Origin: a virus
Reading direction: 5' to 3' (one strand)
Length of the DNA stretch: 64,000 nt
Virus record (IMG/VR): IMGVR_UViG_3300009448_000012
Span: 10,558 to 74,557 of that record
Each line of letters opens with the position of its first letter. The first letter of the stretch is position 1. Under the pieces are notes generated by a model. It ran no database searches. It was not told where the DNA came from and saw only the letters and a list, made by a program, of their open reading frames with translations. A program made the translations under genes and the position numbers. Shown piece by piece: positions 6,114 to 63,637 of the stretch.

Positions 6114-6368
6114 AGCATGCGCGCGCGGATTATGACCGCATCCAAGATCCCGCCGGTCTGATCCCTGATGACGAACCGGTTTTCCTGATCCGTGGTCAGG
6201 ACCTCGCCGCGCCCGACACCCTTCGCGCCTACGCGATGAACGCTCACGTCGCCGGCGCGGCGAACGACATCGTGATGGCGACGCTCGATCAGGCGCGCGC
6301 CATGGAACAGTGGCAACGCGAGCGCGCGCAAGACGCCGGACCTCGCCGTCGAAAGCGGGACCCTGTGA
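6110..6368 (+). CDS. small phage protein, in frame with the downstream methyltransferase as assembled
   Basis: ATGA-coupled start MKHARADY; DEPVFLIRGQD; see finding on a possible frameshift. Confidence 0.55.
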
Positions 6369-6370
6369 CC

Positions 6371-7063
6371 ATGACCGGACAAACCATCATTGCCGGAATC
6401 TCGGTCCCGCTCGGCGACACGCACTTCGGCGACCATCTCGCGCAAAGCCCGCTGTTCGCCGGCAAGGGGACTTACCAGTTCGCCAAGATCGAGAAGGCGC
6501 TGGCGGTCTCACCACACCGGCGCGGTGTCGCGCTCGATGTCGGCGGGCACATCGGCCTATGGTCGCGCGTGCTCGCACATCACTTCAAGACGGTGATCGC
6601 GCTGGAGCCGCTTCCCGCGCTGATCCCGCATTTCCGGTTCAACACCGACGACTGTCCGAACGTCCGCCTCTATGAGGTCGCGGCCGGCGCCGAGAACGAC
6701 GACATCATGATCGTCACGGTCGCCAGTAATTCCGGGAACGGGCACGTCGCGCCGCCGGGCGCGGTCGCCGATGTCAATGTTCACCGCACGCAATCGGTCC
6801 GCCTGGATTCGCTCAACCTTCATAACGTCGACCTGATCAAGATCGACGTCGAAGGTTGGGAATTGCGGGTCGTCGAAGGCGCGGTGAAGACCATCATGCG
6901 GGACAAACCCGTCATGGTGGTCGAGCAGAAACCGAACAACGCCGAGCGGTACGGCGTGAAGCAGCGCGCGGCCGTCGACCTGCTCGCGTCGTGGGGATAT
7001 GTCGTCGCGTGGGAAAAGGCGGGCGACGTGTGCATGACGCATCCGGGCGCGGTGGCGGCGTAA
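6371..7063 (+). CDS. FkbM-family methyltransferase
   Basis: ALDVGGHIGLW, LEP, IKIDVEGWE, PVMVVEQK. Confidence 0.9.
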   Translation: MTGQTIIAGISVPLGDTHFGDHLAQSPLFAGKGTYQFAKIEKALAVSPHRRGVALDVGGHIGLWSRVLAHHFKTVIALEPLPALIPHFRFNTDDCPNVRLYEVAAGAENDDIMIVTVASNSGNGHVAPPGAVADVNVHRTQSVRLDSLNLHNVDLIKIDVEGWELRVVEGAVKTIMRDKPVMVVEQKPNNAERYGVKQRAAVDLLASWGYVVAWEKAGDVCMTHPGAVAA

Positions 7064-7803
7064 TGCGCGAGTCGATCTTCATCGGGTTCGATCGCCGGCA
7101 TGCCGTCGCCTTGGCGGTGTGCCGGCACAGCATCGAACGGCGCCTGTCGCGCAAGATTCCGATCAGGGGGATCGCGCTCGACGAAGTCCGCGCCATGGGC
7201 CTTTACAGGCGACCGACCGAGACGCGCCCGACCGAAGACGGCGAGCATGTCCAGCTATGGGACACGATCAGCGAATTCGGCATGTCGACGGAATTCGCGA
7301 TCAGCCGGTTCCTGACCCCGCATCTCGCCGGCGGCGGGCTCGCGCTGTTCATGGATTGCGACATGGCGGCCAGAGTGGACCTTGCGCGGCTGTTCGACCT
7401 GTACGACCCGCGATATGCAGTCATGTGCGTGAAGCACCGCCACGAGCCGCCGGAAGGCGTCAAGATGGACGGGCAAGCGCAAGTCCGGTACACGCGGAAA
7501 AACTGGTCGTCGGTCATGCTGTTCAACTGCGATCATCCCGCGAACGCCGGGCTGACCGTGGGGCTGATCAACAGCGTCGCCGGCCGCGACCTTCACCGGT
7601 TTTGCTGGTTGCCTGACGACCTGATCGGCGAACTGCATCCGCGTTGGAACCATCTGGTCGGGCATACCGTGTTGCACGAACCGCCTTCCGACACGAACCC
7701 GGCGGTGATCCATTGGACGGACGGTTATCCGCTGCTGAAGGGGTACGAAAGCGCCGATTTCGCCGATGTCTTTCACGCCGAACTGACGAGTTGGGCGAAA
7801 TAG
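7063..7803 (+). CDS. GT-A (GT8-like) glycosyltransferase
   Basis: IFIGFD, STEFAISRFL, FMDCD (DxD), RKNWSSVMLFNC, WNHLVG, HWTDG. Confidence 0.8.
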   Translation: MRESIFIGFDRRHAVALAVCRHSIERRLSRKIPIRGIALDEVRAMGLYRRPTETRPTEDGEHVQLWDTISEFGMSTEFAISRFLTPHLAGGGLALFMDCDMAARVDLARLFDLYDPRYAVMCVKHRHEPPEGVKMDGQAQVRYTRKNWSSVMLFNCDHPANAGLTVGLINSVAGRDLHRFCWLPDDLIGELHPRWNHLVGHTVLHEPPSDTNPAVIHWTDGYPLLKGYESADFADVFHAELTSWAK

Positions 7804-7937
7804 TAAAAACGCATTCGCTTTCGGGAACGGGCGAAATCGACTAAGATGGTGCCGCGATCGGCGGCGCTCGATATACAGCGCCCGACGCCCTGTGTTATAC
7901 ATTTCGCAGAAAGCGATTTTCTGCGAGGTGCTGTGCT

Positions 7938-8618: not shown

Positions 8619-8627
8619 GGGGACGTC

Positions 8628-9445: not shown

Positions 9446-9449
9446 TCAC

Positions 9450-9854: not shown

Positions 9855-9856
9855 AA

Positions 9857-10258: not shown

Positions 10259-10259
10259 C

Positions 10260-14012: not shown

Positions 14013-16963
14013 TGTCCGGTGAACGCGCCCTGGTGTATGTCGAAGTCGATGTCGATTACTGCTCGCTAAGGTACGGCGAGGGCGCTTGTCCGGCAATCCT
14101 CGGCGTCGACAGCGCTGACAAATGCTTCAACTCGCTCAAGACCTGCGCGGTGCGGACCGCGTTCACGAACGACCCTGTGACCATCCGGTTCGCACAGGAC
14201 AATGTATATTTGCCCAAGGATATCCCGGCGATCCCGTCGATCACGGGCGTCCAATTCTCGCCGGCGACGATCTCGCTCGGGAAGGACCTCGGTCAGCGCG
14301 CGACCCTGACGGTCGGTTTCCGCGATCATAAGCACAGCGACACCGGCGAGGGCTTCGACAAATACCACGCCGAGCGCTCTTATAACCCGTTCGATCAAGG
14401 ATCGTTTTGGGGGAAATTCCGCGCGCGCCAGCCCTATCTCAAGGGGCGGTCGATCCGGCTGATCCGTGGCTATCTTGGTCAAACGCTCGCCGAGATGGAC
14501 ACGCGGCATTACATCATCGAATCGTTCAACGGTCCGACGCCACAGGGCTCTTACACTCTGATCGCGAAAGACGTCCTGAAGCTGGCCGATGGCGACCGCG
14601 CGCAAGCGCCGATGGTGTCCAACGGGTTCCTGGTCTCGGCGATCGACGAAGTCGCGACGACCTTGAACCTGTCACCCAACGGGATCGGCGATTTCGAATA
14701 TCCGAATTTCGGCTGGATCGCGATCGGCGGCGAAGAAATCATGGAATTCACCCGAACGGGTGGCATCGATGACAACACGCTGCTGATGCTTCACGGCGAC
14801 GGCGCCGACAACGGGACGACCTTCACCGATTCGAGCGCGTCGAACCGGACCGCGACGCGCGTCGGCACGCCTGTGACCGACACCGGGCTGGTCGTGCATG
14901 GGACGGCGTCGCTCCAGTTTCCAGGGTCCGACGACTTCCTGACCTTTCCCGACGATGACGCCTGGAGCTTTCCCGGCGACTTCACGATCGATTGTTGGGT
15001 CTATGTCACCGACCTGTCCATAAACCGGGTTATGGTCTCGCACTCGGACAACACCGCCGACAATCATTGGCGTTTTCAGGTGGGCACGAGCGGCGCGCTC
15101 GGGTTCATCGTCTTCGTCGGCGGCGTGCTGTCCTTTTCGATCCAGTCGCCGGCGAGCAGTATCACGATCAACAGTTGGACCCATGTCGCGGTCGTGCGAG
15201 AGGGAACGACGTGGCGGATGTACGTCAACGGCTTCGAGGCGTCGGAAGAAGTGAACGCCACGGCAATCACCAATTATTCGGGCCTGCTCCGCGTCGGCGT
15301 GAGCGGCGACGGGACCAGCTTCGACTTTTTCAGCAATATCGACGAGTTGCGAATTTCCAAGGTTGCGCGCAGCGAATCCGAACTGATCGCGGGCCTGCTC
15401 AACCAGTATAACGACGGCGACATTCTCCAGATCGTTCGCGGGCAACTCGGCACGACGGCCGCCGAGCATGACGTTCAAGACCGCGTGCAATTGGTCGTGC
15501 GATATGACGGCGCGGACCCGGCTGACATCCTATACGACCTGTTCACGAATTACGCGCAGATCCCGGCCGAATATATCAGTCTCGGCGACTGGCAAACCGA
15601 GACCGGCTCATTCCTTCAGCGCCTTTACGGCGCGACGATCGCCGACCCGACCGACGTCACCAAGCTGGTGAGCGAGTTGGTCGAGCAAGCCGCGCTGGCG
15701 ATCTGGTGGGACGACGTGAACCAGCTCATCCGCCTTAAGGTGTTGCGCTCGATCCTGACCGACACCGCGCTGTTCGACGACGACAATATCATGGCCGGGT
15801 CGCTCACCGTCCAGGAACAGCCCAATTTACGCGCGTCGCAGATCTGGACCTACTACGGTCAGCGGAACCCGCTTCGTCCGATCGACGAACCCGACAATTT
15901 CCGCTCGACGCTGGCCACGGTCAATTTGCAAGCCGAGAGCGACGAAGGTCAGCCGGCGATCATGAAGATTTTCGCCCGCTGGATTCCCGCGTTCGGGCGG
16001 GACACCGCCGAGCGGCTGAACGACATCCAGTTGGGCCGGTACCAAACGCCGCCGCGCCGCGTCACATTCGACGTCTTCCGGGGCTCGGTCGACGATCCCG
16101 TGTTGGGTTCCGGGTATCAGGTGGGTGCATACTCGATCCAGGACGAATTCGGCGCCCCTGTGACCATGCCGATCCAGCTCACGCGCCTTAATCCGATGTC
16201 TGATCGCTTCAGCGTCGAAGGCGAGGAAATGCTTTTCGAAGCGCTCGACCCGGCGGACCTGCTCGACCGGACGATCGTGATCGATAGCGACATCCTGGAC
16301 GTCAATCTTCGCGACCTTCACGACTCGATCTATCCGGAGCCGGTCGCGTTCGAAAGCCCGTCGATCACCGTGACGTGCATCGTCGAAAGCGACGTCCTGG
16401 TCGGCGCGAGCGGCGCCGATATCCCCGCGTTCGACGTCGGTGACTGGCCGGGCGGCGTCACGATCACGGTCATCAATAACGGGCGCATTCAGGGCGCCGG
16501 CGGCGACGGCGGTGACGGCGGCAACTTCTCCGGAAGCAATTTTAAGGACGGCGAGGCGGGCGGCACGGCCGTTTATACGCGGTACCCGATCATGTTCGAG
16601 GACGCGGCCGGACAGACCTATGGCGGCGGCGGCGGTGGCGGCGGTGGCTACTTCAGGGGCGGCGGTGGCGGTGGCGGTGCTGGTCAGGTGCCGGGTGAAG
16701 GCGGACCCTTCACAACCGACCAGAACAGCCCCAAGTCGGGCGCGCCCGGCACGCTGGACGCGGGCGGCATCGGCGGCGACGGCGGCGGTGAATGGGACGA
16801 CGACGGCGGTAACGGCGGCACGCCGGGCGTCGCGGGCGGCGTCGGCGAACCGGGTCCGCCGACAGCCGGCGCCGGCGGCGCGGCCGGGCACGCGATTGAC
16901 GGACTGTCGTTCATAACGCAGGTTGGGGCGGAAGGTGATCGCCTTGGAGGGGAAGTGAACTAA
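14012..16963 (+). CDS. tail tip/hub protein with inserted LamG-like domain and Gly-rich C-terminus
   Basis: N-terminal Cys cluster; FTIDCWV...WTHVAVVR...MYVNG...IDELRISK; GGGGGG tracts. Confidence 0.8.
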   Translation: MSGERALVYVEVDVDYCSLRYGEGACPAILGVDSADKCFNSLKTCAVRTAFTNDPVTIRFAQDNVYLPKDIPAIPSITGVQFSPATISLGKDLGQRATLTVGFRDHKHSDTGEGFDKYHAERSYNPFDQGSFWGKFRARQPYLKGRSIRLIRGYLGQTLAEMDTRHYIIESFNGPTPQGSYTLIAKDVLKLADGDRAQAPMVSNGFLVSAIDEVATTLNLSPNGIGDFEYPNFGWIAIGGEEIMEFTRTGGIDDNTLLMLHGDGADNGTTFTDSSASNRTATRVGTPVTDTGLVVHGTASLQFPGSDDFLTFPDDDAWSFPGDFTIDCWVYVTDLSINRVMVSHSDNTADNHWRFQVGTSGALGFIVFVGGVLSFSIQSPASSITINSWTHVAVVREGTTWRMYVNGFEASEEVNATAITNYSGLLRVGVSGDGTSFDFFSNIDELRISKVARSESELIAGLLNQYNDGDILQIVRGQLGTTAAEHDVQDRVQLVVRYDGADPADILYDLFTNYAQIPAEYISLGDWQTETGSFLQRLYGATIADPTDVTKLVSELVEQAALAIWWDDVNQLIRLKVLRSILTDTALFDDDNIMAGSLTVQEQPNLRASQIWTYYGQRNPLRPIDEPDNFRSTLATVNLQAESDEGQPAIMKIFARWIPAFGRDTAERLNDIQLGRYQTPPRRVTFDVFRGSVDDPVLGSGYQVGAYSIQDEFGAPVTMPIQLTRLNPMSDRFSVEGEEMLFEALDPADLLDRTIVIDSDILDVNLRDLHDSIYPEPVAFESPSITVTCIVESDVLVGASGADIPAFDVGDWPGGVTITVINNGRIQGAGGDGGDGGNFSGSNFKDGEAGGTAVYTRYPIMFEDAAGQTYGGGGGGGGGYFRGGGGGGGAGQVPGEGGPFTTDQNSPKSGAPGTLDAGGIGGDGGGEWDDDGGNGGTPGVAGGVGEPGPPTAGAGGAAGHAIDGLSFITQVGAEGDRLGGEVN

Positions 16964-19450: not shown

Positions 19451-19462
19451 GACCCTGTGACC

Positions 19463-20209
19463 ATGACGAACAGGCGATTGTCTAAGGCCGGTGCTGGCGC
19501 CGGTGCAGCGCATGAGGCTTGCTATTTGTTCGCCTATCCCGATCCGGGAACCGGCGGCGATCCCTGGACGATCGGCGTCGGGCACACCGGCCGCGCCGGC
19601 TTGCCGAACGTGCGGCGCGGCGACCGGATCAGCTTCACCAGGGCGTTCGAGATTTACGCGGTCGACATGGGCAAGGTCGAGACCGACGTGAACCGGGCGA
19701 TCACGGTGGACCTGGAGCAACATGAATTCGACGCGGCGTGCATTTTCCATCTCAACACCGGCGCGATCCGCGCGGGCTCGGTCGACGACAAGCTGAACCG
19801 GGGCGACCGCGCGGGCGCGTTCAAGACGTGGGGCGCCTACATCAACGCCGGCGGCAAGCCGATGAAGGGGCTCATCACGCGCCGCGCCGAGGAAATCGAG
19901 ATCTTCAAGACCGGGCGTTATCCGACGCGCCGGATCTTGGTCAAGGACACGCAAACGGGATCAGGGCGTTACGTCGCGCCGTCCTCGATTCCGTGGCGTG
20001 GGGACGTGCCGGCCGGCGGAATTGACCCGACGCCGGTCGCACGTCCCGCGATCGTCGCCGAAATACCGGCGCCCAAAATCGTGACCTCGCCGGTGAAGGT
20101 CGCCACGCCCGCGCGGCCGATCGGCAAGCCGGCGTCGGCGCCGTGGTATTCTCGATTTTGGGAATGGATCAGCACGGGCAATGACGGCGCAATCGCCGGC
20201 TTAGGATAG
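19463..20209 (+). CDS. endolysin (GH24 phage lysozyme family)
   Basis: HE...AYPDP...WTIGVGHT; FDA...N.G; GLITRRAEE; Pro-rich tail. Confidence 0.9.
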   Translation: MTNRRLSKAGAGAGAAHEACYLFAYPDPGTGGDPWTIGVGHTGRAGLPNVRRGDRISFTRAFEIYAVDMGKVETDVNRAITVDLEQHEFDAACIFHLNTGAIRAGSVDDKLNRGDRAGAFKTWGAYINAGGKPMKGLITRRAEEIEIFKTGRYPTRRILVKDTQTGSGRYVAPSSIPWRGDVPAGGIDPTPVARPAIVAEIPAPKIVTSPVKVATPARPIGKPASAPWYSRFWEWISTGNDGAIAGLG

Positions 20210-21035: not shown

Positions 21036-22940
21036 TTAGGCGTCCCGCTGAAGCGGACCGCTGGCAAGCTCCATCTCGATGCCGTCCAGGCGCCCGACGA
21101 CGCGCCAGCACGGCACGTAGTTGATCAGGCCCTTCTGTAGCTCGAACACGACGTGGCGGATCGGCGTGAGGCGTGGGGGCAGCACCAGGGCGGCTTCGAC
21201 GGCCGTGACGAGCCGATGCGGTTCGTCGACCATGACGCGGACGACCGGGGTCACATTCGGGTTCCACCCTTCGAGCGACTTGGACGCCCATGCGGCGCGG
21301 ATCTCGGCGACGGCTTGCGTGGTCATTTCTGTTTGCCCGTCCCGTCGCATACCGGACAATCGACCGTCTCGACCGGTGTCTGGACGTGCTCGCGATCTTC
21401 GGCCGGGAAGATCTTCCCGAACGGCGCCGGCTGAACATCGACCTTCCCGTCGCCGCCGCATGGCTCGCACGGGTCCCCTTTAGCTGTCATTGGCTGTCGT
21501 CCTTTTCTGGTTTGCCGAACAGTGCGATGAACGCGCGGCGCCGGCGGTGTCGGCGCTGGATAGCCTCGACCCGGCGCATGTGAGCGACGCGGCGATCGAG
21601 ATCCGGCGTCTTGCTGGAGCTATTCAGGTTGCTCCACATGAAGACGATCAGGATCGCGATATGATAGTACGCGAGCAGCCACAGCGCGGCCGTTTGGATA
21701 CCGGGCGACCCGTATGCGAGCATCACCGCAAAGGTCCCGATCAGGGTCCCGTAGCTGATCAGCATCATTCCGGAATATCCGCGTCCAGCGCTTCGTCGAT
21801 GTCCGCGATCAGCCGCGCGCGGACGCCGTCGCTCATCGGGTGCTCGACGTCGACGATCTCGCGGACGCTGGTCAGGGCGTCGCGAAGGTGCTGGACCATC
21901 ATGCGATCGGTATTCGGCCCTGTGACCATCGGCGCGAGCGACAGCATCACTAGCCCGTCGCTCAGCGCGCCGAAGTCCGCGATATGGATGACCCGGACGC
22001 CGATCGGTTTGGTCGCGTCCTCGGCTAGGTCCTGGTTGCCGCGCCCCATTTCGAGCAGGTCGCCAGCCTTGACGTTGGCGCGGGTTTTGTCGACCAGGAT
22101 TGCGCGCATCTCGCCGGCGCGGACGGCGTCCCAATAGTCGGCGCGGACAACTAGCTTGTGCGTCTTGGCGGTCATTTGGTTCGGTCCAAGGTTGCGTCGA
22201 TATAGTCGACCAGGGTTTCGTTGGGGCTGTCGGCTTCGTTGACCCAAACGGTGCAACAGATCGACAGGGCGTTGATATCGGCGAAGATCGACCGGCGGAT
22301 CACGGCCAGCGCTTCGCGGGCCTCGACAAGCCGAGGGTCTTCAGGCGGCGTGCTGGTGGTCATGTGGCGGGCTCCGATCGTCCGCTAAGGCGCCGACACG
22401 CGGCCGGCGCCTGGACTGACGGTCAGTTGTGCGACGGCTTGCCGGGGTCGCTGGTCGGCGGCGGCTCCGGTGAGTCGGGGCTGTCCCAAAAGTCCGGATT
22501 GCGGGGATCGAAATTCGGGAGGTTGGTCGGATACTGAATATCCGGGTCCGGCTTGGGCGGCGGGTTATCGGCCATGGTTTTCCTTTCGGGCTGGTCGTCC
22601 ACTAAGCCGCCGGGCTCGCCGGCGGCCGGGAAGGCGACCGTCATTTCGACGGCATCCATTCAGATCGCGCGCGCGGCTGATGTGTCCAGCGGACCCAAGT
22701 CCACCAGATCAGTTCGAGCCGCACGAAGCGGGCGTAAAGCCGGATGCGTCGCGGCGCCTGATCGACCAGTTCGAACAGGCAAGCGAGGAACATCAGGCTG
22801 TGACCTAAAGCGTTTCGAAACATCAGTGGTAAACCCCTGTTAGCAACCAGCCCATGAAGCGGTCGTCGCGGCATGCGATGACGAACATGACCAGCGTCAT
22901 CAGCACGACGGTCATGACGGTGATCTGGTTCGTGGTCATG
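21036..22940 (-). other. run of small hypothetical early genes (e.g. 21036-21326, 21487-21768 membrane, 22172-22363, 22423-22575 Pro/Asp-rich)
   Basis: Tightly packed minus-strand ORFs, several with ATGA overlaps. Confidence 0.55.
21765..22175 (-). CDS. ASCH/DUF3850-like (PUA fold) protein
   Basis: HKLVVRADYWDAVRAGE...VKAGDLL. Confidence 0.55.
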   Translation of the reverse strand: MTAKTHKLVVRADYWDAVRAGEMRAILVDKTRANVKAGDLLEMGRGNQDLAEDATKPIGVRVIHIADFGALSDGLVMLSLAPMVTGPNTDRMMVQHLRDALTSVREIVDVEHPMSDGVRARLIADIDEALDADIPE

Positions 22941-25415: not shown

Positions 25416-25571
25416 AGAAAAACGAACGATTTTTCATTAAATCGACGATTATTGTTCCGACGATGAACGTCCAGATGATCACAGCGGCGGCGATGCTTGA
25501 TCGAACGTGTCTAGGCATTGATTAACCTTGGAAAATGGTCGTGCCGACCGATCATCGACACGACCCTGTGA

Positions 25572-28500
25572 TTATTCCCCGCGTTTCGCGGCTTCGAGGT
25601 TTTCCAGCGCGGCCGTGATCTGATCACGGACATCGTTGAGCAGTTTGTAAGGATCGACGCCCACGCCGGCGGCGTCGATGTTGGTCTTGATCAGCTTCAG
25701 GTCAGCTTCGACGCCGCGCATCAGCTCGCGCCATTGCTTGATCACGACGGTCTTAAGCGACGGCGCGGCCGCCGGCTTGGGACGGTTCTCCGGATCGAGC
25801 GACCGCGCCTTGACGACGCCTTCAGCCGTGCGGTGCGTGACGCCGCCGGCGATCTTCTTCCACGCCTTGCCCGTCCAGGTGTAAACGTCGGTCAGGTTGT
25901 TTCCGATGTCGCGGATCTCGCATGCGCCGACCTCGGTCCCGGCGTCGATCGGCACGGCGCCGGGATGAATGACCGCTTCGACTTCCTTCCACGTCAGGTC
26001 GTCGACCAGCCGATCGACGACGCCGGTGTTTTTCCATTCATCGACCGCGTAAAGCCCGTCACCGGTCGAGACGGTGAACTTCACGCTGAACGTGCTGGTC
26101 GGTGACGGCTCGACCTCATCAGGCATGTCGACGTCGACCGCGTCGCCGGCGCGCGGCGGCGCGGTCAGGACGAACCCCTTAGCGGCCCAACGCTCGATCT
26201 GTTCTTCCGTGGGTGCGGCGAGCCGGGACACGTCGCCCATTCGTTGCGCCGCCTGTGCGACCAGCTCGACCGCGTCCCAATAGGTCGCCGAGACCGGGAA
26301 ATTCTCGCCGCGCATGGTCAGCCATTGCCCCTTGGTCGCGCTCCAGCGTTGGACGCTCCAGCCGCCGGCGGGCTCGATCAGGTTCGGCATGATCCGAAAC
26401 GTGCCTTCGTGCTCGGGAACGTTGGTCCCGACCGGCATGGTCACGGTTTCGATGCGAACCGGCGGCTGTTGCGCGACGCTGGCGGCGTAAATCTGGTCGA
26501 AGGTCTCGGTCGGCGGGACATGCGCCGCGACGTTTGCGTGTGGCGGTTGTTCGGGCTGGTCAGCCTGCATCGTGCAATCCAGTGCGTGTTGACGGCGCCG
26601 GGCTTCCGAAAGCTGTTCAGCGACGTCGGCGAAGTGTTGGGGGTGTCGTTTCAGGTAGTGGATCGCGTCCGCCCGGTGGGCACTGTTCCCTTGCTGCTCG
26701 CCGCCGTTGGGTCCCTCGCCGGTGTGGCGAAGGTGATGATCGAGCGCTTCGAGACACGACAGGGCGGTCGCGATCGCGTGGCGGCCGTCCTGAAACCGGT
26801 TGGGCTTCGGCACGTCGCCGATCGGCGTCGTCCGCGTGGCGATCGCCAGCGCTTCGTCGATCAGCTCGATCGCGCTCGGGACATATCGCGATATCATGCT
26901 GTCACCGCGCAGGCGGCGAAGGACCTCGGCGACCGCATCGAGGCGCGTGTTATTCGCCTCGATCATGCCGTCGCGAGCATCGACCGGTTCATCGTTGATC
27001 ACGCTCACGGTTTGGTCGCTGATGATTTCGTCGATCAGCACCATCGCCGAGCCGATCGCCGGGTCGTCGCTCCGGACACTATTCAGGATCTCGATCACGC
27101 GGGTCAGCCGGCGGACCGTCAGACCATCAGGTTCGTCGGCGAATGGTTGCAAGCCTTGCAAGCCGCGATAGATCGTGTTTTCCGACCAGCCGGCCGCGAC
27201 CAGCCTGGAGACGATCGTGTTCAGCGCGGCCGTTGCGTGGCTGTCGCGTCTCCATCCGAGGACCGCGCGGCACTGCTCGGCGAACGCGGTCAGTTCGGGA
27301 CTATCCATTTTCCAGATCAAGCCGGTGTCCTGACCGTTCGGGTCGAGGATGCGGCGCGGCAGATCGTAACCAGGCGAAGCGCTGGCGATCTCGTTTTCAC
27401 CGCGAACGATCGTGATCGCCTGACCGACCCTGTGACCATATTTCACGATCTCGCCTTCGGCCTCGGCGACGGTGTCGAACTGGCGCCATGGCCACAGCTC
27501 CGGCTCGCATTCCGATATCACCGCCGACCAATGTCCGCCGACCGGTGTCGCGCGCCAGCGCTCGATCTCGAACATGCCGTTCGTCGACGACTGGCGGACA
27601 TGAAACGCACCGTCCATGATCCCGGCGACGGTCTCGGCGTCCTCGCCGGTGAGCAGTGCCGGCACATCGTCGGCGCTGATCAGCTCGACCGCGTAAGGGG
27701 CTTGTTCGCTGGACCAGTCGCCGAACGCTTGGATCGCCGAGGCGCGCGTATCGAACGACCTCGACAGCACGCGGTACATGACCGGGAAGCCGGTTTTCTT
27801 GTGAATGGCGGACCAGCCTTCGACGTCGTCGTGGATGAAGAAGAACCACAATCCGTTGTAGGGCGATTGCTGGATCTGAAACATCACCGGCGTCGGCTCG
27901 ACCGCGATGTCGAAGTCGGGACCATTGGCGCCACGGAACGCGCTGATCGCGCGAAGCGCCTGTTCGCGGCTGACGAAGGTCGTCGGGCGAAGCGACGGTT
28001 CATCCGAGATACGCACGACCCGCTTGTCATAGCCGTCGTAAGGCGCGCCGATCCAAACGTATCCGCCTTGGTCGAGCCGCTGAATCAACCAGGACCCGGC
28101 GGCGTTCAGCACGATCCGCGCGGTCACGGTCGGGCGGGCGGGCACATCGCGCGGCGAGGCGGGCGGCGTCGGTGTCATAGGCGGTTCGCCGGCGGGCTGG
28201 TTGTCGGCGATCCATTTTTCCGGCAAGCCGCTGATCCCCACGGTCAGCGGCACGTCGAGCATGAAGCGGTCTTTCATGCCGATCCGCGCGGCGTATCCGT
28301 GGATCGCCTTTTCGGTCGCTTCGTAGTTCGACCGAACCAGCAAGCCGTCGACCATGATGGTCCACCAGTTGCCGGCAAGGTCCTGTTGCTGGATCGCGCA
28401 GTCGGTGTTGATCATGCTTTTATCGCCGGCGCGCGAGAACCGCACGATCCGGAACAGCTTGTCGGGACCCTGGACGATCGGCGCGTGATCGCCGGGAAGG

Positions 28501-28712
28501 AAGACCATCACGCCGGTTTTCGCCTTCGTCGCGGCGCGGTGTTTCTCGATCGCGGCGAGCGCGGCCGGGCTATCGGGGAAGGTTCCCGACAGCACGCTGT
28601 CGCTGTGCGGCGGGACCCAAACGCCGGCGGCGTTCCGTTGCTCGATCGCGATGGCGTAAGTCACCGGATCGCCGATCGGCTTGATCCGATATTCCTCGGT
28701 GTGCTGTGTCAT
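25572..28712 (-). CDS. 1046-aa hypothetical protein with repeated beta-beta-beta-alpha-like modules
   Basis: Recurrent [IV]xxxxxxGxW...F.[ST]..xA..AI pattern. Confidence 0.8.
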   Translation of the reverse strand: MTQHTEEYRIKPIGDPVTYAIAIEQRNAAGVWVPPHSDSVLSGTFPDSPAALAAIEKHRAATKAKTGVMVFLPGDHAPIVQGPDKLFRIVRFSRAGDKSMINTDCAIQQQDLAGNWWTIMVDGLLVRSNYEATEKAIHGYAARIGMKDRFMLDVPLTVGISGLPEKWIADNQPAGEPPMTPTPPASPRDVPARPTVTARIVLNAAGSWLIQRLDQGGYVWIGAPYDGYDKRVVRISDEPSLRPTTFVSREQALRAISAFRGANGPDFDIAVEPTPVMFQIQQSPYNGLWFFFIHDDVEGWSAIHKKTGFPVMYRVLSRSFDTRASAIQAFGDWSSEQAPYAVELISADDVPALLTGEDAETVAGIMDGAFHVRQSSTNGMFEIERWRATPVGGHWSAVISECEPELWPWRQFDTVAEAEGEIVKYGHRVGQAITIVRGENEIASASPGYDLPRRILDPNGQDTGLIWKMDSPELTAFAEQCRAVLGWRRDSHATAALNTIVSRLVAAGWSENTIYRGLQGLQPFADEPDGLTVRRLTRVIEILNSVRSDDPAIGSAMVLIDEIISDQTVSVINDEPVDARDGMIEANNTRLDAVAEVLRRLRGDSMISRYVPSAIELIDEALAIATRTTPIGDVPKPNRFQDGRHAIATALSCLEALDHHLRHTGEGPNGGEQQGNSAHRADAIHYLKRHPQHFADVAEQLSEARRRQHALDCTMQADQPEQPPHANVAAHVPPTETFDQIYAASVAQQPPVRIETVTMPVGTNVPEHEGTFRIMPNLIEPAGGWSVQRWSATKGQWLTMRGENFPVSATYWDAVELVAQAAQRMGDVSRLAAPTEEQIERWAAKGFVLTAPPRAGDAVDVDMPDEVEPSPTSTFSVKFTVSTGDGLYAVDEWKNTGVVDRLVDDLTWKEVEAVIHPGAVPIDAGTEVGACEIRDIGNNLTDVYTWTGKAWKKIAGGVTHRTAEGVVKARSLDPENRPKPAAAPSLKTVVIKQWRELMRGVEADLKLIKTNIDAAGVGVDPYKLLNDVRDQITAALENLEAAKRGE

Positions 28713-29065: not shown

Positions 29066-29665
29066 CAGAACACCAGCATGCCGACCGTGAAGGACACGAC
29101 TGCCGTGATCACGAACCACGCGGCCGGATGGATCGCGCGCAGCACGGCGCCGACGATCGACCAGTCGTCATGATCGAACACGCTCGACCGGAACGCGGCC
29201 GCGCGCGGCGAGCGGTTCAACCGGTTCAGAAACCGCGCGACGTTGCGCGCGTCGCGGGCGGCCGCCTCGCTCACGGCCGCGCCGAATTCGCGCAAGGCGT
29301 CGGCGAGGACCCGCATTTCGTCGGCGGTCGAGCGGCTGACCGGCTTCAGCCCTTGGCATTCAGGCGGCACAGGCTGACCCTGTGACCATCCTTGCTCGAT
29401 CGCGCATCCATAGGACGCGGGACAGCCTTCAGCCGGGCACATGTGCCCTTCACGGCGCGTGCAATGCCAGCCTGGAAAGTTCATGGGCGGGTTCTCCGTA
29501 AGCTTTGAATGATCGACGCCGCGTCCGCCATGATGCCGGCGACGACGTTCGGCGCGTAAGGGATGTCGTCGACCACGGTGTCGAGCAGTTCGGTCAGGAC
29601 GTGGTCGACCGTCTTTCGGCTGATCCGCATGGGACCGCGTTCCGCCTGCTTTTGCCTGACCGTGG

Positions 29666-34279: not shown

Positions 34280-34473
34280 TGGGGAACCCCTAAGAGATGA
34301 TTGCCAAGGTGATGATTAAGCCGGTCAGGATAATGGTCACGAAGATGATCGGACCCGCCCGGCGCTGGAGGTTGTAAGTCGCCTTGTACCGGCGCCACGG
34401 GTCCGAGAGGACGAACAGGGCGGCGCCGGCGAGGACCAACAAGGCGAGGGTTAGCGGTGTGATGGTCACAGGT

Positions 34474-43442: not shown

Positions 43443-43633
43443 CGCTGGCGCCACCACCAGACCAGGACGTCGCGCCAGCGCCAGCGGCCGGAGCCGGCGC
43501 ACTGGTCGCAACGTTCCTCACGAACGTTCCCATATCCGCCGTAAACGGCTTCGATGCCGGAGCCGCCGCACATCCGACAGTCGCCCACGGCGCGCCAGCG
43601 CCAATAGAGGCGCCACTTCAGCCCTGTGATCAT
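43439..43633 (-). CDS. small DnaJ-type zinc-finger protein
   Basis: CRMCGGSG...CDQCAGSG. Confidence 0.6.
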   Translation of the reverse strand: MITGLKWRLYWRWRAVGDCRMCGGSGIEAVYGGYGNVREERCDQCAGSGRWRWRDVLVWWWRQR

Positions 43634-47042: not shown

Positions 47043-47807
47043 AGCGTCAAGATCCACAGGACAACCACGACGGCCGCAATACCGCCAAACAATGCACCGA
47101 CCAGGGCGCCGAGCAGGGCGACCAGCACACGGCCGCGCTGGCGCCGCGCCGGCGGCGTTGGCCAGTCGTCGATCGCCCGGTGGGTGCTCGGCGTATCGAG
47201 GACCGACCGATAGAGGATGAACCCCGGCACGCTGTCGCGGGCGCGGCCGATCGGGCTGTGACCACGGTTCTCCGGCGGCGCCGGCGGCCGTCCGCTGGAG
47301 CCGCCACGGGGCGGCGTGGCGGGCGCGGGCACGTCCGGCGCGCGATAGCCGCCGCGCGACGATTGCGGGGCTGGTGGCGGCGGTGGCGGTCCCTTGGGGC
47401 GGTTGTTCGGTTCTCGGATCATCAGCGGCGTTTCCTCACTAGCGCGACGCGTTCGTCGTCGGCGGCTTTGCGCTCCAGCTCGGCGGCGCGTTGATTGAGC
47501 GCGGCCGCCGTCTCGGACTGTTTGGTTTCGCGAGCGGCCTTGGCCAGCCGGCGAAGGTGGAGCGCTCGGCGTTTCATCCCGTGGATTTCAGCGTTCATCG
47601 ATCGCGATCCTGATCAGCTTCAGATCGGCGGGCGTGATCTGGTGGAGCATGCGGCGCACAGCCGCCCTGTGATATTCCCGCGCGTGATGGTTTGGCCAAA
47701 GCTTCGCGCCGCATGCCGCCAGCGCGAGACGTTCGACCATCTCAGCAAATGCAACCGTCGTGTCCGCGACGGATTGCTTGTTCGTCCCCCTAGTCATAAT
47801 CACACGG

Positions 47808-52317: not shown

Positions 52318-53669
52318 AATCCCCGCGCGTCGTTCGGCATGCCGTGGCGTAACAGCGCCTCGACGTCGTCCAGGGCGGCGCGATAGCCGCCGTCATATCC
52401 TTCACCCGCCAGCCCGCGCCCATAGACGCCTTGGGACTGCTCGGCGATCCGCTGGTCGATCTTGCGGCGCGCCGAGACCAGTCGCTTCAGGAATTGGGCG
52501 CGGGTCAGGGCCGGCATGTCAGACCGGCCGGCGCGGCTTGGTCGCCCAATTCCGGCGAACGTACATATCGACCGTTTCCAGGGCGACGCCGCCGACCTGA
52601 TCGAGTAGGGACCCGACGCTGACCTTGTGATTATCCGGATTTTTCATCAGGCTTGTCATGATCAGCGCGCGAAGACCGATCCAGAATTCCGCGTCCGCCT
52701 CGAACCGCATGTCGGGCGCCGGCGGCGGCGGGGCGAAGGGTGCGGTCGGCGGCTTCGGCAGGGGTGGCGGGGTGATGGGCTTCGGACCCTGTGACCGGGC
52801 GTCAAGCGCTCGCTCGGCGCCGGGCGGCATGGGCACAGGGAACAGCTTTTCGGTACCGAGATACGTCTTGCCCTTGTGCTGCTCGACCATCAGGCGGGAA
52901 TGCTGACCGCATCCTTCGCACTCATAGACCACGCTGACCGCGTCGCGGCGCGTTGACGGGTTCTCATGGATGCGCGGGTTCGGGAAGGTCAGGCGCGGTC
53001 GATCATAGGCGCGGTGACTGTAGGTCGGACTGTCCTCGCCGGCGGGGCGGGCGTGGATGTCGACGGCCGTGTGATGCACGAACGTGTTGCGGCAATGGGC
53101 GCAAATCAGCGCATGCGAGGCGTCGCCGTCGTGGTCGATGATAATGCTCATTTGATCCAGCCTCGTTCGCGAAGACCTTCGACGATCTCGATCGTGATGT
53201 TTTCGCAGTGTTTTGACATCTTGACGGTGTCTAGCGTGTCAAGAGTCCCGGCTTTCTCGCGTGCTTTCAAGATTGCTTGCGAGAACGTATGAGGCATGTT
53301 GCGCCGGATCATTTCAATGTCCGCAACCATTTCTTGCGGTACGGTGCGAGCCGCCTTCAAGCGCGCGATTGCTTCACGTTGTTCTTTCGAATGCGGTGCA
53401 GGTTTGTTCATGCTTCCGTTTTCGATAGCAATCGCAGCAAGGGTAATGACGTGATCAAGCAACTGATTAATGATGTCAGTCATTATTTCGCCGGCATTGG
53501 CTGCGCCGGGTCCGCGTAAATCCAGATAGCCTTTGGATTTGGCACCGTTTGCCAACAAGTCTTGACTTACCCTGTGTGCCTGACCGACCAGTCGCGCAAA
53601 TTCGCGGAAATTGTCGACGTCGTTTTTACGTTCTTCCGGAAGGTCTTCGTAATTCTCGGTTTTCGGCAT
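52305..53669 (-). other. three hypothetical genes (52305-52517, 52519-53151 with CxxC pairs, 53148-53669 AT-richer)
   Basis: Coupled ORFs. Confidence 0.6.
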
Positions 53670-57107: not shown

Positions 57108-59841
57108 ATAAAGAACTCCATTCTGCCCTGATGACCCTTTGGGAATTCCGGGAATTCGTCCAGCGCGAAGCCAAGGTGTGGACCATCAACGGGTCGCATC
57201 ACAACCCGATCTGGCAAAAGGTCGCTGAAGCGCTCGATGCCCATGGGATGAACGCGTGCTTCGGCACGCCGCCGGCGCCGGTGCTGGAGACGCCCGAACG
57301 CGTGCTGGTGTGGCATTGCCCGATGTGCGACGCGCGCGTTCCGGAAGCGCTCGCCGACTGTCCGGCGTGCGTGTCGGGCGTCGCTGAATTCGACCCGGCG
57401 GTCGAGGAACAGGCGCGGGTGCGCGGCGGCGCCCTGGACCCGACAGCCAAGGCGCGCGCCGTGTCGCGCGGTCAGGCGTCGTGGAGGAAGGGGCCGAACT
57501 ATGGGGACTGGTATTGCGTCCGGTGCGACGTGAAGCTGGTCGGGCAATATGAACCCTGTGACCATTGCGCCGACGACCAGATCGCCGAACCGCTCGCCGC
57601 GACCATGTTCCGCGACCTGACCGAGACGGTCGCATGCGCCGTGAGGTCGAGAACGCCGAAACCTGCTTGCACACCCTCGGTCAGTTGCTCGACGACGACG
57701 ACGACGTGCCGACGTGTCGGATCTGCGGATGCACCGCCGACGATTGCTCGGGATGCATCGAGCGGACGGGCGCGCCGTGTTCGTGGGCAGAATGGGATCT
57801 GTGCTCGGCGTGCGTGGATGACGCCCGGCTGATCGCCGAGATCGACGCGGTCGAAGGGTCGATCACCACCACGTCGGAGCGCCATATAACGGGCGCCGTC
57901 GACAAGGCATTGCGGAAGCTCGACCTCAATGCGGGCTATGGGAATCGCGGCCTGCGCGATGTCGGTGTCATGCAAGACTTTGGCAAGCCGTCGCCGGCCG
58001 CAAGGGACGTGCTCGCCAAGAACATGACCAAGGCGGTCGCCGACTTCGACGCGAAGGTGCTCGACGTGCTGACAGGCGGACGATCGGCGCCGATGACGGC
58101 CGCCTATGCGGCGAATCTGTTCCACAAAGACGCCGATCGCTTCATCGACATGATGTTGCCGCCATGGCCGACCGTCCGCTTACCCTTCTACGACGCCGAT
58201 CTGGTCCGGTCGGTGAATGACACCGGGTCCGAGATCCTGACGGTCGGGCTCGGCATGACGGCAACGCCTGAAGGCGTGGTTCCGCCTTGCTCGTGTCTGG
58301 TGTCGATCGACCATGAGGACGGGCTTTGCACGCAATGCGGCGGCGTGTTGCCGACACCGGACAAGCATCTATGCGTCGATGAAGGGTGCGAGCATCACGA
58401 GGCGCCCGACGTTGCCGCGTGGCGCCCGGGCGTGGATGGTCCGACCGGCGACGGCGCGGCGGACCTTGACGCCCTGGACGCGGCTCTTTACGTCGGCGAC
58501 GCGGTGTCATGCGTGCATATCTGGCGCCCGATCGAAGGGCGTTATCCCAAATGCGTCCTTTGCGGCGCCGAGGACATCCCGGCATGATCGACCCTGATGA
58601 CCTGTTGCACGCGACGGCCGTGACCGTGGGCGACCACCTGGACGAGATCGCCGCGCTGTTCAAGCCCGGCGCGCGGATCTCGGTCGTGGTTTGGGTACCA
58701 GGGCGCCCAACCGTCGATTTCGTGCTGACCTCGCCGGAAGCGACGATCGACGACGTGATCGAGGTCTACACGCGCCGGCGAGATGACCCGGCGACGGTGC
58801 GCGGCCGGACCAGCATGCCGGCGGGCGCGGTGTCGGCGTGCTCGCATGAATTCCAGTCGTATTTCAGGGCAACCGGCGGCCGGTACGACAAATGCCGGCT
58901 ATGCGAGGCGGAACGGCCGCTTCCGGAGAACCCGTCGATCCCGTATGTGCGCCCGGCGCGGACCGTGGAACGTGCAAAGCACTGCCGACGTGCTGGCGGT
59001 CAATGCGCTTGCTTGCCCAACTATTGCGATATGCAACCCCGTGAGGCGCAACGCGACGTGGAAGATCCGGTGGTCCCGTCGATCAGGGCATGCCGGCGGG
59101 CTGGTCCCGCATTACCGAGCGACACGCCTTGCGACTGCGATCACCCGAACCGGTGCGCGATCGTCGAGGCTTACACGACGGAAGGTGATGAGGGATGACT
59201 AAAGAACAACTCGAACAGCTCGACGCCCGCATGCATCTGTTGCGCCTGGAATGCTGGCGCGAAATTAAGGAAAGCGCCGACAAATCGCCGGCATACACCT
59301 TGTTGCGCGTGTATTCGAAGATGAAGATGCTTTGCGAATTCTATGACGGTTTGCGCAAGGCGCCGGTGGTGGTGACGCCCGATGAAGAACCGCCGTCGAT
59401 CGTGAAGGTGTTCGGATGTCGCCGCGCGATCTTCGGCCCTGGAGTGGTGCGAGCGGCCGCCAAGGCGTGCGACTGCGATCACCCGAACGAATGCCGGATC
59501 GTGGATCTGTGCTCGCCTGAAGGTGATGAGGGATGACCCGGCGCTGTGATCATGCATGGACGGTCGCGGTCAGCAAGCGCGGCTTTGTAGTGGTGGTTCG
59601 ACCGTATGGTGAGAAGCTTCATCAGCGGTGGTTCTGGAGCAATCCGCCCGCTGGTCATCCCATGCATCAACTTCATTCGGGGATGTGGCTTTGCCGGTCG
59701 CGGCCGCTGGTCTTCACCGACTATCGGAAAGCGCTCCGAACCGCTAAGCGGCTGAACGACGCGGTCCGCAGCATGACGCGCCACAACGAACGGATGCGTC
59801 AAGAACGGCTCACACGACAGAAGGTGATGAGGGATGAGTGA
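57104..59841 (+). other. hypothetical genes, several Cys-rich (57104-, 57634-58587, 58584-59198, 59195-59536, 59533-59841)
   Basis: Multiple CxxC motifs; ATGA coupling; shared 18-bp junction repeat. Confidence 0.6.
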
Positions 59842-60639: not shown

Positions 60640-60665
60640 ACCGACCCTTAGGTCCGTTACATGGC

Positions 60666-60704
60666 AACGCCCGGCGTGGACCAACACGACCGGGCGTTTA
60701 TTTT
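60666..60704 (+). terminator. hairpin plus T-tract upstream of the primase gene
   Basis: AACGCCCGG...CCGGGCGTT then TATTTT. Confidence 0.55.
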
Positions 60705-60718
60705 GGAGACGTGTCTAG

Positions 60719-63085
60719 ATGCTTAATCCGGTACCGGTCAAAATGCAAGCGGTTCCAAAAGGGTTCGAGAAGTATAAGCAATTCATAAACTGGCGACTGG
60801 TTCCAGATAAAAAAAAACCCGGCAAATTCAAAAAGCTTCCGTGCAATAGCAACGGAACGATTATTTCCGCACATGACCCGACGCAATGGATGACCGCCGA
60901 ACAAGCTTGCTTGTCCGAATACGGAATCGCGTTCGTCTTCACCGCACATGACCCCTTTTGGTTCATCGACCTCGACGAAGCGTGGAACGGGTCGTGTTGG
61001 TCGGAAATCGCCGATTGGTGCTTCCGGTGCTTCCCTGGTGCGGCGCTGGAGATATCGAACAGCGGGACGGGCCTGCATCTGTTCGGCGCGGGCTCGCACA
61101 GCTTGCCGGCGGATCACGGTTGCAAAAATATGTCCGCCGGCATCGAGCTATACACCCAAGGGCGTTTCGTCGCCCTGACGGGCACCAGCGCGGCCGGGAA
61201 CGCGTTTCTCGACTATAGCGACCGGCTGGCGACCTTCGTGGTCCAGGCGCGCTTACAGCCGCGTGACACGACCCTGGAGGACCTTGGGGACGGTGATGCG
61301 GTCGATCCGCGCTATACGGGGCCGGCGGATGACGACGAACTGATCGCCCTGATGCTCGACAGCGTCGGGTCGGTCAAAACGCAGTTCGGGTCGAAGGCGC
61401 ATGTCCGCGACCTTTGGGAAATGAACGTGCCGGTGCTCGAAGGGTGCATGTCGGCGCCGTCGCGCCAAGACGGCGTCAAATTCGACTGGTCGAGCGCCGA
61501 CGCGTCGCTGATGTGGCATTTGAGTTTCTGGACCGGTCGCGACCGCGATCGCATGGTCCGGCTGTTCGAGCGCTCCAAGCTGTACCGGCCGGACAAATAT
61601 GAGGGCAAGGGCGCCTATCGGCTTCCCCTGGTCCTGAAGCAAGGCTTCCGCAACACGGCCGTGTACGACCGCCCCAAGCCCGGCACGGCGATGCAGCCGA
61701 TCGAGCCGGGCGCGGTCGCACCGTCGCAGCGCGGCGGCCGCTCGACCATGGACCTCGCCGAGCAGATCCAGCACTTCGACGGCTGTTGGTACATCCAGGC
61801 GTCGCACAGCGTCATGTTGCCCGATGGGCGGATCGTCCCGCCCAAAGTGTTCGACGTGGTCAAGGGCGGGCACAAGTTTCAGATGCAATATGACAACGGC
61901 AAGCCGACGACCGAGGCGTTCACCTGCTTCACGCAAAGTCGGATGCATACCTTCAACAGTGCAATTGATACGTGCTTTCGCCCTGATCGTGAACCCGGCG
62001 CCCTGGTGGATGGTCGGATAAACACATGGCGCGCGCCTGTCGTGGTCGAGACGCCGGGCGACATCACGCGGTTTCTGGAGCATGTCGCCCGCATGATCCC
62101 GAACCCGGTCGACCGCTCGATTCTGTTCGCCTATATGCAATCGCTCGCGCGCAATCCGGGGAAGAAATTCCAATGGGCTCCGGTGATCCAAGGCGTTCCC
62201 GGAAACGGCAAATCGCTGTTGATCCGGGTCCTGTATTACGCGATGTCGAAGGAGTTGTCGCATCTGCCCAAGGCGTCGCAACTCACCGAAAAATACAATT
62301 CGTGGATGGCCGAACGGATTTTTATCGGTGTCGAGGAAATCAAAGTCACGGATCGTCGTGAGGTGCTGGAGGACCTTAAGGACGCCGTGACGAACGATTG
62401 GATCGAAATTCGCGGCATGCATCGTGAAAAGAAGATGGCCGATAATTTCACCAATTGGCTGTTTTGCACGAACCATAAGGACGCAATTCCCGTCGATCGT
62501 TCAGAACGCCGATATGCGATCTTTTACACCGCTCAGCAAACGGTCGAGGATCTGGTTCGCGACGGCATGACCGACGATTATTTCGTCTCGCTTTACGATT
62601 GGCTGAAGGCGGGCGGTTATGCGGCCGTTGCGCACTGGTTGCGCCATGGCGCGATCGAGGCGGTGAAATATGATCCGGCGACCGTTTGCCAGCGCGCGCC
62701 GCACACGTCGTCGACCGCCGAGGCAATCGGCGTTTCGCTCGGTCGGGTCGAGCAGGAAATCATGGAAGCGGTCGACAACTGCGAACCCGGCTTTAAGGAC
62801 GGCTGGATAAGCACAGGCGCTGTCGCGCGTTGGTTGCAACAGCGCGGCGCGCGCGATGTCAGTGCTCGCAAAATGGGCGAAATCCTTAAATCACTTGGAT
62901 ATACGCACGCTTTCAAATCGTCGGTGAAGGTGATGGAAGAAAACGGCGTTCGAGCGCACATCTATCGAAAGAACGATTCATTCCAGCACGGCGATCAAAA
63001 CGATTTTCTAATCGCTCAAGGATATTCTTCAACATTGCGAAGCGGGTTCACTGTTCAGCCTGGAGCGGACCCGCTGGCGTCCTGA
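60719..63085 (+). CDS. primase-polymerase fused to a D5-like/DUF5906 helicase
   Basis: FIDLD, EISNSGTGLH, IELY..GRFVALTG; Walker A GVPGNGKS; IGVEE; CTNH; RRYAI. Confidence 0.92.
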   Translation: MLNPVPVKMQAVPKGFEKYKQFINWRLVPDKKKPGKFKKLPCNSNGTIISAHDPTQWMTAEQACLSEYGIAFVFTAHDPFWFIDLDEAWNGSCWSEIADWCFRCFPGAALEISNSGTGLHLFGAGSHSLPADHGCKNMSAGIELYTQGRFVALTGTSAAGNAFLDYSDRLATFVVQARLQPRDTTLEDLGDGDAVDPRYTGPADDDELIALMLDSVGSVKTQFGSKAHVRDLWEMNVPVLEGCMSAPSRQDGVKFDWSSADASLMWHLSFWTGRDRDRMVRLFERSKLYRPDKYEGKGAYRLPLVLKQGFRNTAVYDRPKPGTAMQPIEPGAVAPSQRGGRSTMDLAEQIQHFDGCWYIQASHSVMLPDGRIVPPKVFDVVKGGHKFQMQYDNGKPTTEAFTCFTQSRMHTFNSAIDTCFRPDREPGALVDGRINTWRAPVVVETPGDITRFLEHVARMIPNPVDRSILFAYMQSLARNPGKKFQWAPVIQGVPGNGKSLLIRVLYYAMSKELSHLPKASQLTEKYNSWMAERIFIGVEEIKVTDRREVLEDLKDAVTNDWIEIRGMHREKKMADNFTNWLFCTNHKDAIPVDRSERRYAIFYTAQQTVEDLVRDGMTDDYFVSLYDWLKAGGYAAVAHWLRHGAIEAVKYDPATVCQRAPHTSSTAEAIGVSLGRVEQEIMEAVDNCEPGFKDGWISTGAVARWLQQRGARDVSARKMGEILKSLGYTHAFKSSVKVMEENGVRAHIYRKNDSFQHGDQNDFLIAQGYSSTLRSGFTVQPGADPLAS

Positions 63086-63402
63086 TCGGATGTGACGGCT
63101 TCAGGACGCTATTAGGACGGATGGTTCAGGACGTGCAAAAACCCTTACATTTCCTATACTTATATCTTCTCCGTCCTAATGGTCCTAAAAAAGAAGGGGT
63201 ATATATGAGGAAGGATAGAGGAAATAATAACGATAATAACAATGGATAGATGGATAGATGGATAGATGGATAGATGATGGTTTGAAGGGGAAAAAGGTAG
63301 GGGGGAAAGGGCCGATTAGGACATCAGGACGCCTTTGCGATAAGGTGTTGAAATATAACGGTTTTCAGGACGTCCCGATTTAAAACGCAAAATATCAGGA
63401 CG
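63078..63402. repeat. candidate replication origin: 10 TYAGGAC(G) boxes around an AT/purine-rich core with (ATGGATAG)x4
   Basis: Boxes at 63078(-), 63101, 63112, 63126, 63172(-), 63181(-), 63316, 63324, 63365, 63395; tandem repeat 63242-63273. Confidence 0.65.
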
Positions 63403-63409
63403 GGTTGTC

Positions 63410-63637
63410 ATGCTGAAATGGTATATCCTGGGTATAGTAGCGGTGTTTGTTTCAACCTTACGTTGGGAAAACGATCGCGGTTGGGGCGTGATCATCTCCT
63501 ATGTCGCCCTAACCATCGTGGGTTATTGCGCTATCATGGTCCTGTGGAGGCTGAAGCGTGGATGGAACAATAGGCATGGGGGTAGGACCAGGGCGAAACG
63601 CCTGCCCTGTGATCATCATGAGGAACATGGGCTATGA
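63410..63637 (+). CDS. small two-TM membrane protein
   Basis: Two hydrophobic segments; ATGA overlap with the HNH gene. Confidence 0.5.
   Translation: MLKWYILGIVAVFVSTLRWENDRGWGVIISYVALTIVGYCAIMVLWRLKRGWNNRHGGRTRAKRLPCDHHEEHGL

Follow-up and report, generated by a model that had tools for sequence, protein, structure and literature searches.

The IMG/VR virus record IMGVR_UViG_3300009448_000012 (74,557 bp) carries a dispersed motif, the 12-mer CCCTGTGACCAT with its core CCCTGTGA, that occurs on one strand only, is maintained by selection on the DNA against the codon preference of the genome, and is both conserved and turned over in related phages. We analyzed bases 10558-74557 of the record, a 64,000-nucleotide stretch referred to here as the window; all coordinates below are window positions. 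Judging by its sequence pattern, the motif is a predicted recognition site of a strand-specific factor belonging to the phage lineage, as it is a word of ~15 bp that lies on one strand, runs against codon preference, is shared within the lineage and is absent from the candidate hosts that were sampled. Knowledge of site-specific nicks in phage DNA goes back to T5, and to our knowledge neither the enzyme that produces them nor their function has been established. We tentatively read the motif as a series of site-specific nick sites of the kind present in the phages tf, LUZ24 and Rembedalsseter, a reading that we hold with a confidence slightly under even.

A dispersed motif confined to the plus strand

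The exact 12-mer CCCTGTGACCAT occurs eight times in the window and nine times in the complete genome, always on the plus strand and never on the minus strand; dinucleotide shuffling of the window yields an expectation of 0.00. All eight window copies reported in a first-pass annotation of this DNA were recovered on the plus strand where it had placed them, as were the five additional core sites that it listed, while its total of 13 sites was short by one, the core at 47665 having been missed. The window therefore holds 14 copies of CCCTGTGA, as compared to 1.04 expected by dinucleotide shuffling, and the genome holds 16, all of them on the plus strand with none in reverse. Enrichment was also evaluated by shuffling synonymous codons within genes for 500 rounds, a procedure that keeps both the proteins and the codon usage. 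Against the nine observed copies of CCCTGTGACCAT, the shuffled genomes averaged 0.58 and never exceeded 4. The strand bias and enrichment for which the annotation had proposed checks are thus both present (reverse count 0), and its claim that selection acts on the DNA is supported by the codon-preserving shuffle together with the rare codons described below.

A logo built from the 16 cores contains information from position -3 to position +11 (~15 positions) and nothing beyond, defining the conserved word c-g-R-CCCTGTGA-Y-C-A-T. No hairpin common to the motif copies was found and, as the copies have no common secondary structure, the signal is the linear sequence itself. A hairpin or an element resembling a miniature inverted-repeat transposable element was rejected, as there is no common fold and no conservation beyond ~15 bp, and a protein-coded repeat was rejected because the reading frames differ among copies. 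The copies are spaced more evenly than expected at random (coefficient of variation 0.61, P 0.023), and the widest gap between them, 12 kb, lies over the cassette-like early region.

Near-matches to the motif exist on the minus strand and none of them keeps the CCC prefix. The imperfect reverse matches noted in the annotation near 34462 and 37754 are real, reading ACCTGTGACCAT and CCTTGTGACCAT, respectively. When the CCC prefix is disregarded, the 3' half TGTGAYCAT is present 9 times in the forward and 11 times in the reverse orientation as compared to ~2.5 expected (~4-fold, P below 0.003), with minus-strand examples at 1319, 20280, 25487, 44607, 56569 and 59991. Similarly, CGCTGTGAYCAT has two forward and three reverse copies, and its CCC form is found 0 times on the minus strand. 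These patterns suggest that the motif may be a two-part site, in which the 3' half would be bound in either orientation and the CCC prefix would be tolerated on one strand only. Confinement of the prefix to the plus strand is compatible with avoidance of cutting in the second strand and does not prove it. A separate observation concerns the pentamer CACAG, which is partly the reverse complement of the 5' half of the motif and lies no more than ~47 bp from four of the 16 copies (~0.7 expected), at positions 14193, 29368, 47657 and 52834; at the copies beginning at 14173 and 29378 the predicted local fold pairs CACAG with the motif.

In agreement with the annotation, motif copies sit in plus genes as well as in minus genes. 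About half are intergenic or located where genes end, including two that separate a ribosome-binding site from an ATG. The placement at 6361..6372 requires revision, as this exact copy of CCCTGTGACCAT more likely overlaps the start codon of a plus-strand gene than lies within a minus-strand gene: its last two bases and the following G form an ATG in frame with an FkbM methyltransferase open reading frame (ORF). Exact copies are also found inside plus-strand tail fibre coding sequence at 14173..14184 (Pro-Val-Thr-Ile) and 16156..16167 (Pro-Val-Thr-Met), between the ribosome-binding site and ATG of the plus-strand endolysin gene (19453..19464) and at a gene junction (57554..57565). Three others are antisense to minus-strand coding sequence, namely 21918..21929 (Met-Val-Thr-Gly), 27428..27439 within the gene of a 1046-aa protein (Gly-His-Arg-Val, with the rare codon AGG) and 29378..29389 (Trp-Ser-Gln-Gly, with the rare codon TCA). 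The remaining sites in the window, likewise on the plus strand, are variants of the 12-mer or copies of the core. They comprise CCCTGTGATTAT at 25564..25575, which is intergenic and lies 8 nt past the stop of the 1046-aa gene; CCCTGTGACCTT at 41398..41409, antisense within the DNA polymerase gene; CCCTGTGATCAT at 43622..43633 (intergenic) and again at 63605..63616, 18 nt upstream of the HNH endonuclease gene; a core with the divergent 3' part TATT at 47665..47676 (intergenic); and a core with the 3' part CCGG at 52787..52798, antisense in a minus-strand ORF. The annotation had also stated that the copies fall in different frames, which holds for minus-strand genes, where all three frames are used; in plus-strand genes the frame encodes Pro-Val-Thr throughout, except in a doubtful 75-aa ORF. 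Its statement that the motif imposes rare codons agrees with the codon usage of the genome, in which CCT accounts for 9% of Pro, AGG for 4% of Arg, ACA for 6% of Thr and TCA for 5% of Ser codons. A promoter for a phage RNA polymerase was rejected by reasoning, since 10 of the 16 copies lie in the minus-strand gene block and would there drive antisense RNA.

The motif in related phages and in sampled hosts

Three distinct fragments of related phages were found that are 69-73% identical to this phage in the large terminase (TerL) and ~66% identical at the DNA level, and 75-80% identical to each other. Their sequence covers the structural arm only, ~19 kb in total. Within these 18.8 kb, CCCTGTGAYCAT is present in four copies as compared to 0.0017 expected, all on the terminase-sense strand with 0 on the opposite strand, and the eight copies of TGTGAYCAT are also all on the terminase-sense strand. 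The relatives span 55-62% G+C, and the motif follows the phage lineage across this range. Some sites are conserved among the related phages, while others have been gained or lost through synonymous changes. For example, the intergenic copy that follows the capsid gene persists amid indels in the alignment, and the degenerate copy CCGTGTGACCAT forms an island of identity. A copy in the TerL gene of relative L122, by contrast, reads GACCCGGTGACGCTT in this phage; the encoded Asp-Pro-Val-Thr is the same and the codons are synonymous, such that the site has been lost here. The TerL proteins themselves vary in size, as several close homologues (L120:1047-4247, P0011, P0012, P0014, P0021 and P0026) are ~1010-1070 aa long instead of the usual ~680. 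Their sequences indicate an apparent insertion of ~350 aa in the terminase of some relatives, possibly an intein. The TerL homologues P0002, P0007, P0008 and P0013 are encoded on longer contigs of 29-74 kb.

No comparable one-strand word was found in TerL relatives at 40-50% identity or in phages that encode a 32-40% identical homologue of the primase-polymerase/helicase described below, and the more distant TerL or primase-polymerase relatives (G411 to G415) contain no comparable one-strand word of at least 10 nt. Among viral contigs, a pattern for the conserved intergenic site gave no matches and a scan with a 14-mer gave single chance matches only. The 12-mer, which was counted in place of the 8-mer core, is not enriched in 401 sampled Alphaproteobacteria, where it has at most 4 copies per genome. 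At this background level, the 12-mer is unlikely to serve as a Chi or uptake sequence in the candidate hosts sampled.

Candidate functions of the motif

Localized nicks are the sole experimentally established class of element with the properties of this motif. The tf paper describes 14 nicks at TACT/RTGMC, all on the top strand and spanning two convergent transcription units, and reports that nicking is lost when positions 1, 3 and 4 are substituted and that LUZ24-like phages show similar positions together with a shifting consensus. The Rembedalsseter paper (2025) describes 13 strand-specific breaks at WACTRTGAC, a motif found on one strand only, and a word conserved in 61 phages. In the phage studied here, the word is likewise restricted to one strand (16 cores and nine 12-mers on the plus strand with 0 on the minus strand, and four copies to 0 in the relatives), its strand is independent of transcription, with sites in plus and minus gene blocks alike, and across the ~19 kb structural region of the three relatives the word is conserved, as are some of its positions. 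The sites have a density of 1 per 4.7 kb, as compared to 1 per 3.3 kb in tf. The heptamer CTGTGAC is common to the motif and the tf site TACT/GTGAC, and the probability that a random 12-mer shares 7 contiguous positions is ~0.005. The first-pass annotation had pointed to this overlap, and both the overlap and the tf consensus that it quoted are confirmed in the tf paper.

From these parallels we infer nicking at the motif, as well as the position of the nick and the enzyme that would be responsible. The word c-g-R-CCCT/GTGA-Y-C-A-T would be read by a strand-specific DNA enzyme of the phage lineage, which would place programmed single-strand interruptions in the plus strand of the packaged DNA, like those of Pseudomonas phages tf and Rembedalsseter, T5 and the phiKMV group. 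The tf analogy puts the predicted break between the T and the G. A candidate nickase is the small HNH endonuclease encoded beside the terminase genes, which might act late or during packaging. The HNH gene is located at the right end of the genome (63634..63963, plus strand; PF01844, E 1.2e-5) and, when the genome ends are joined, adjoins the terminase genes in an HK97-like packaging arrangement. Its presence had been proposed in the annotation together with that of a primase-polymerase, which is also encoded, and of a VRR-NUC protein, for which there was no match when the genome was searched with Pfam VRR_NUC.

Several observations weigh against nicking. The sites do not match the consensus WACTRTGAC, sharing 7 of 9 positions (CTGTGAC) and differing at the first two; the full consensus is found once in the genome, as a chance occurrence. 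Compared with the tf site, the motif is longer, differs in its flanks and is located on the terminase-sense strand, the opposite of the strand that bears the site in tf. The phages also differ, those of the tf kind being podoviruses and this one having a siphovirus-type genome and an HK97-like terminase. A tblastn search against the tf genome revealed no significant match to any protein of this phage (best E 0.004), such that a nickase common to both is not apparent; nor did Pfam identify a nuclease domain in any of ten small tf proteins that were scanned. The enrichment of TGTGAYCAT on both strands is not explained by a simple nick model. Finally, we know of no nickase that has been identified in the known nicked-phage systems; phage 9NA, also considered in this connection, was not pertinent.

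The main alternative, an unlikely one, is that the motif copies are initiation sites for the NrS-1-like primase-polymerase. GTGAYCAT would then be recognized on the displaced plus strand and a DNA primer would start opposite the preceding T (primer 5'-AGGG...), punctuating the lagging strand in unidirectional, rolling-circle-type replication. The phage does encode an NrS-1-like primase-polymerase fused to a helicase (60719..63085, plus strand; helix bundle domain PF22763, DUF5906). At its N terminus, this protein has a domain that matches the NrS-1 primase structures 6k9a/6a9w with an E of 3e-17. The centre of the motif (positions 5-8) is GTGA, the template element of the NrS-1 enzyme, and the T that precedes it is invariant; a GTG(A) element in the site and an encoded primase-polymerase with a helix bundle domain are thus found together, as in archaeo-eukaryotic primase (AEP) systems. 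NrS-1 primase-polymerase recognizes the template sequence 5'-GTGA-3', of which GTG is the critical part, and starts synthesis at the base immediately 5' of GTGA (PMC8718748). The even spacing of the copies also favours priming, as does base composition: the plus strand is G-rich at four-fold degenerate sites in plus genes (+0.039) and in minus genes (+0.111, seen from the plus strand), an asymmetry that therefore does not come from transcription and that fits a plus strand repeatedly single-stranded as the lagging-strand template. Cumulative GC skew climbs steadily over the window with no turning point, which suggests one-way replication or exposure of one strand. However, the specific 8-mer site of NrS-1 occurs just once in the NrS-1 genome, which also lacks any one-strand word in dispersed copies, and phages with more distant primase-polymerase homologues have no such word. 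In addition, a 15-bp word seems more than priming would require, as known primase sites are 3-8 nt long and GTG by itself is abundant, and the GTGA overlap is weak evidence, since a 4-mer is easily contained in a 12-mer. We regard as unlikely a stronger form of this idea, in which the motif would be a long, sequence-specific start code for Okazaki fragments and not a nick site, with CCCT being copied and GTGAYCAT recognized, and in which the G-rich plus strand would be the mutational trace of long single-stranded stretches between sites.

It is distinctly unlikely, in our view, that the motif is a polar signal for a translocating machine, either a Chi-like site read by host AddAB/RecBCD or by the phage's own UvrD-like helicase and DUF2800 nuclease, or a signal for the packaging motor. 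Such a role would agree with the single orientation along the whole genome, with the location of the motif on the G-rich strand, as for Chi and KOPS (FtsK orienting polar sequences) in bacteria, and with the presence of genes for the helicase and nuclease; moreover, the 3' end of the plus strand is at the right end, an orientation that, by analogy with lambda, would be readable by a nuclease entering there. Chi sites, however, are 5-8 nt long and abundant in the host genome, whereas ~15 positions are conserved here; the 12-mer is at background in the sampled Alphaproteobacteria, and the motif follows the phage lineage across relatives that differ in G+C content. Binding by a phage regulator or architectural protein, in the manner of a stoperator, appears very improbable. 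An asymmetric 13-15 bp word that recurs many times, in about half of the cases at a gene boundary, would suit such a protein, and a 3' half enriched on both strands is what a protein-binding half-site might show. Yet the motif has the same orientation in opposed gene blocks, whereas L5 stoperators follow the direction of transcription, a contrast that the annotation had drawn and that our data support, and a pure binding site gives no reason for genome-wide polarity. A repressor-based, temperate lifestyle is also not indicated by the integrases, as the genome has 0 matches to PF00589 (tyrosine) or PF00239 (serine); a repressor was not searched for. Among the functions that the annotation had offered, nick sites fit best, priming has gained the GTGA argument, and a Chi/KOPS-like signal is weakened by the ~15-bp length, the lineage-bound word and the host background.

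If the word marks nicks, the phenomenon would extend to an HK97-like siphovirus lineage with probable alphaproteobacterial hosts in groundwater. The CTGTGAC core would then be held in common with the sites of Pseudomonas podoviruses despite no detectable shared protein, pointing to a common constraint or to a small unrecognised enzyme. The genome offers two candidate readers of the word, the packaging HNH endonuclease and the NrS-1-like primase-polymerase, whose relative recognizes GTGA, and the transcription-independent strand asymmetry links the word to a one-way DNA process.

Genome setting and comparison with known systems

The record is an estimated 91% complete, has a G+C content of 62.5% and derives from a groundwater metagenome. 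Two groundwater metagenome runs, one of them probably the source, hold the phage, and its sequence in the second is identical to that in the first (both runs consist of assembled contigs); no RNA dataset is listed as containing the phage. No relative was found at the DNA level among GenBank phages and there is no cultured relative; the best TerL match among cultured phages is Paracoccus phage Shpa (54% identity), and the closest TerL matches in phages and prophages, at 45-58% identity, are from Alphaproteobacteria; an alphaproteobacterial host is probable. Genes were called with a GC3 heuristic made for this analysis, in which short ORFs are uncertain. The layout is siphovirus-like, with gene blocks on the plus, minus and plus strands. 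The left arm (plus) encodes the HK97-type large terminase, portal, protease, major capsid protein, an island of glycosyl- and methyltransferases, tape measure, tail fibre and endolysin. The central block (minus) contains early and replication genes, including those for a UvrD-like helicase, DNA polymerase, a Gp2.5-like single-strand-binding protein and a DUF2800 nuclease, and the right arm (plus) encodes an SNF2-type helicase and the NrS-1-like primase-polymerase/helicase, with the HNH endonuclease at its extreme end. The largest protein of the early block is that of 1046 aa (25572-28712, minus strand). Pfam, PHROG and Atlas offer no lead on it, GenBank phages encode no homologue, and scans of viral contigs revealed no relatives of this protein or of the SNF2 helicase.

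Two other repeats were observed in the window. The 17-mer GGGGAACCCCTTGAGAG (plus-strand letters) is present in 11 exact copies between 34282 and 48212, and its 9-mer core in 14. Every copy abuts the start codon of a minus-strand early gene and is usually preceded by a GC-rich hairpin, and the element is a repeated ribosome-binding-site/terminator cassette that heads early genes; the 17-mer had no matches in the viral-contig scan. A direct repeat, RTRATCACCCT, is found only at the extreme right end, at 63938-63948 and 63984-63994, with its copies 46 bp apart. Both copies lie within 63 bases of the record's end, the expected location of the cos site in an HK97-like phage, and the repeat may be a recognition element for the terminase or the HNH endonuclease. 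The second copy, GTGATCACCCT, resembles the two halves of the dispersed motif in swapped order.

Compared with systems that have been described, the motif resembles mycobacteriophage L5 stoperators in being an asymmetric word (13 bp in L5) with many copies within and between genes. Stoperators, however, follow transcription and need a repressor, whereas here opposed gene blocks carry the word in one fixed orientation and the genome yielded no integrase. Chi (RecBCD/AddAB) and KOPS (FtsK) are also strand-polarised, located on the G-rich strand and written through genes, but they are host-genome words of 5-8 nt that are very abundant, in contrast to this longer, phage-lineage-specific word. With the recognition sites of AEP primase-polymerases (5'-GTGA-3' and 5'-TTTGGTTA-3' for NrS-1, GTG for ORF904 of pRN1) the motif shares a GTGA centre, and the phage encodes a homologous enzyme; those sites are only 3-8 nt long, and the specific site of NrS-1 occurs once only, in a genome that has no dispersed word of this kind. 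The interruptions in the virion DNA of T5 (5'-R/GCGCRGG-3') and of the phiKMV group (5'-CGACNNNNNCCTA/CTCCGG-3') are similarly site-specific and confined to one strand, but they bear no relation to the motif in sequence: this genome lacks the phiKMV consensus and has the T5 7-mer on both of its strands. The motif also differs from the sites of tf, Rembedalsseter and ~60 LUZ24-like phages (TACT/RTGMC, WACTRTGAC), as it is ~15 bp long instead of 9, is flanked by CCC and YCAT, is known here from sequence alone and belongs to an unrelated phage with an HK97-like terminase, an HNH endonuclease and no protein shared at the BLAST level. What it has in common with these nick sites is the use of one strand whatever the direction of transcription, a frequency of ~1 site per 3-5 kb, a word conserved across relatives at positions that are partly conserved, and the CTGTGAC core.

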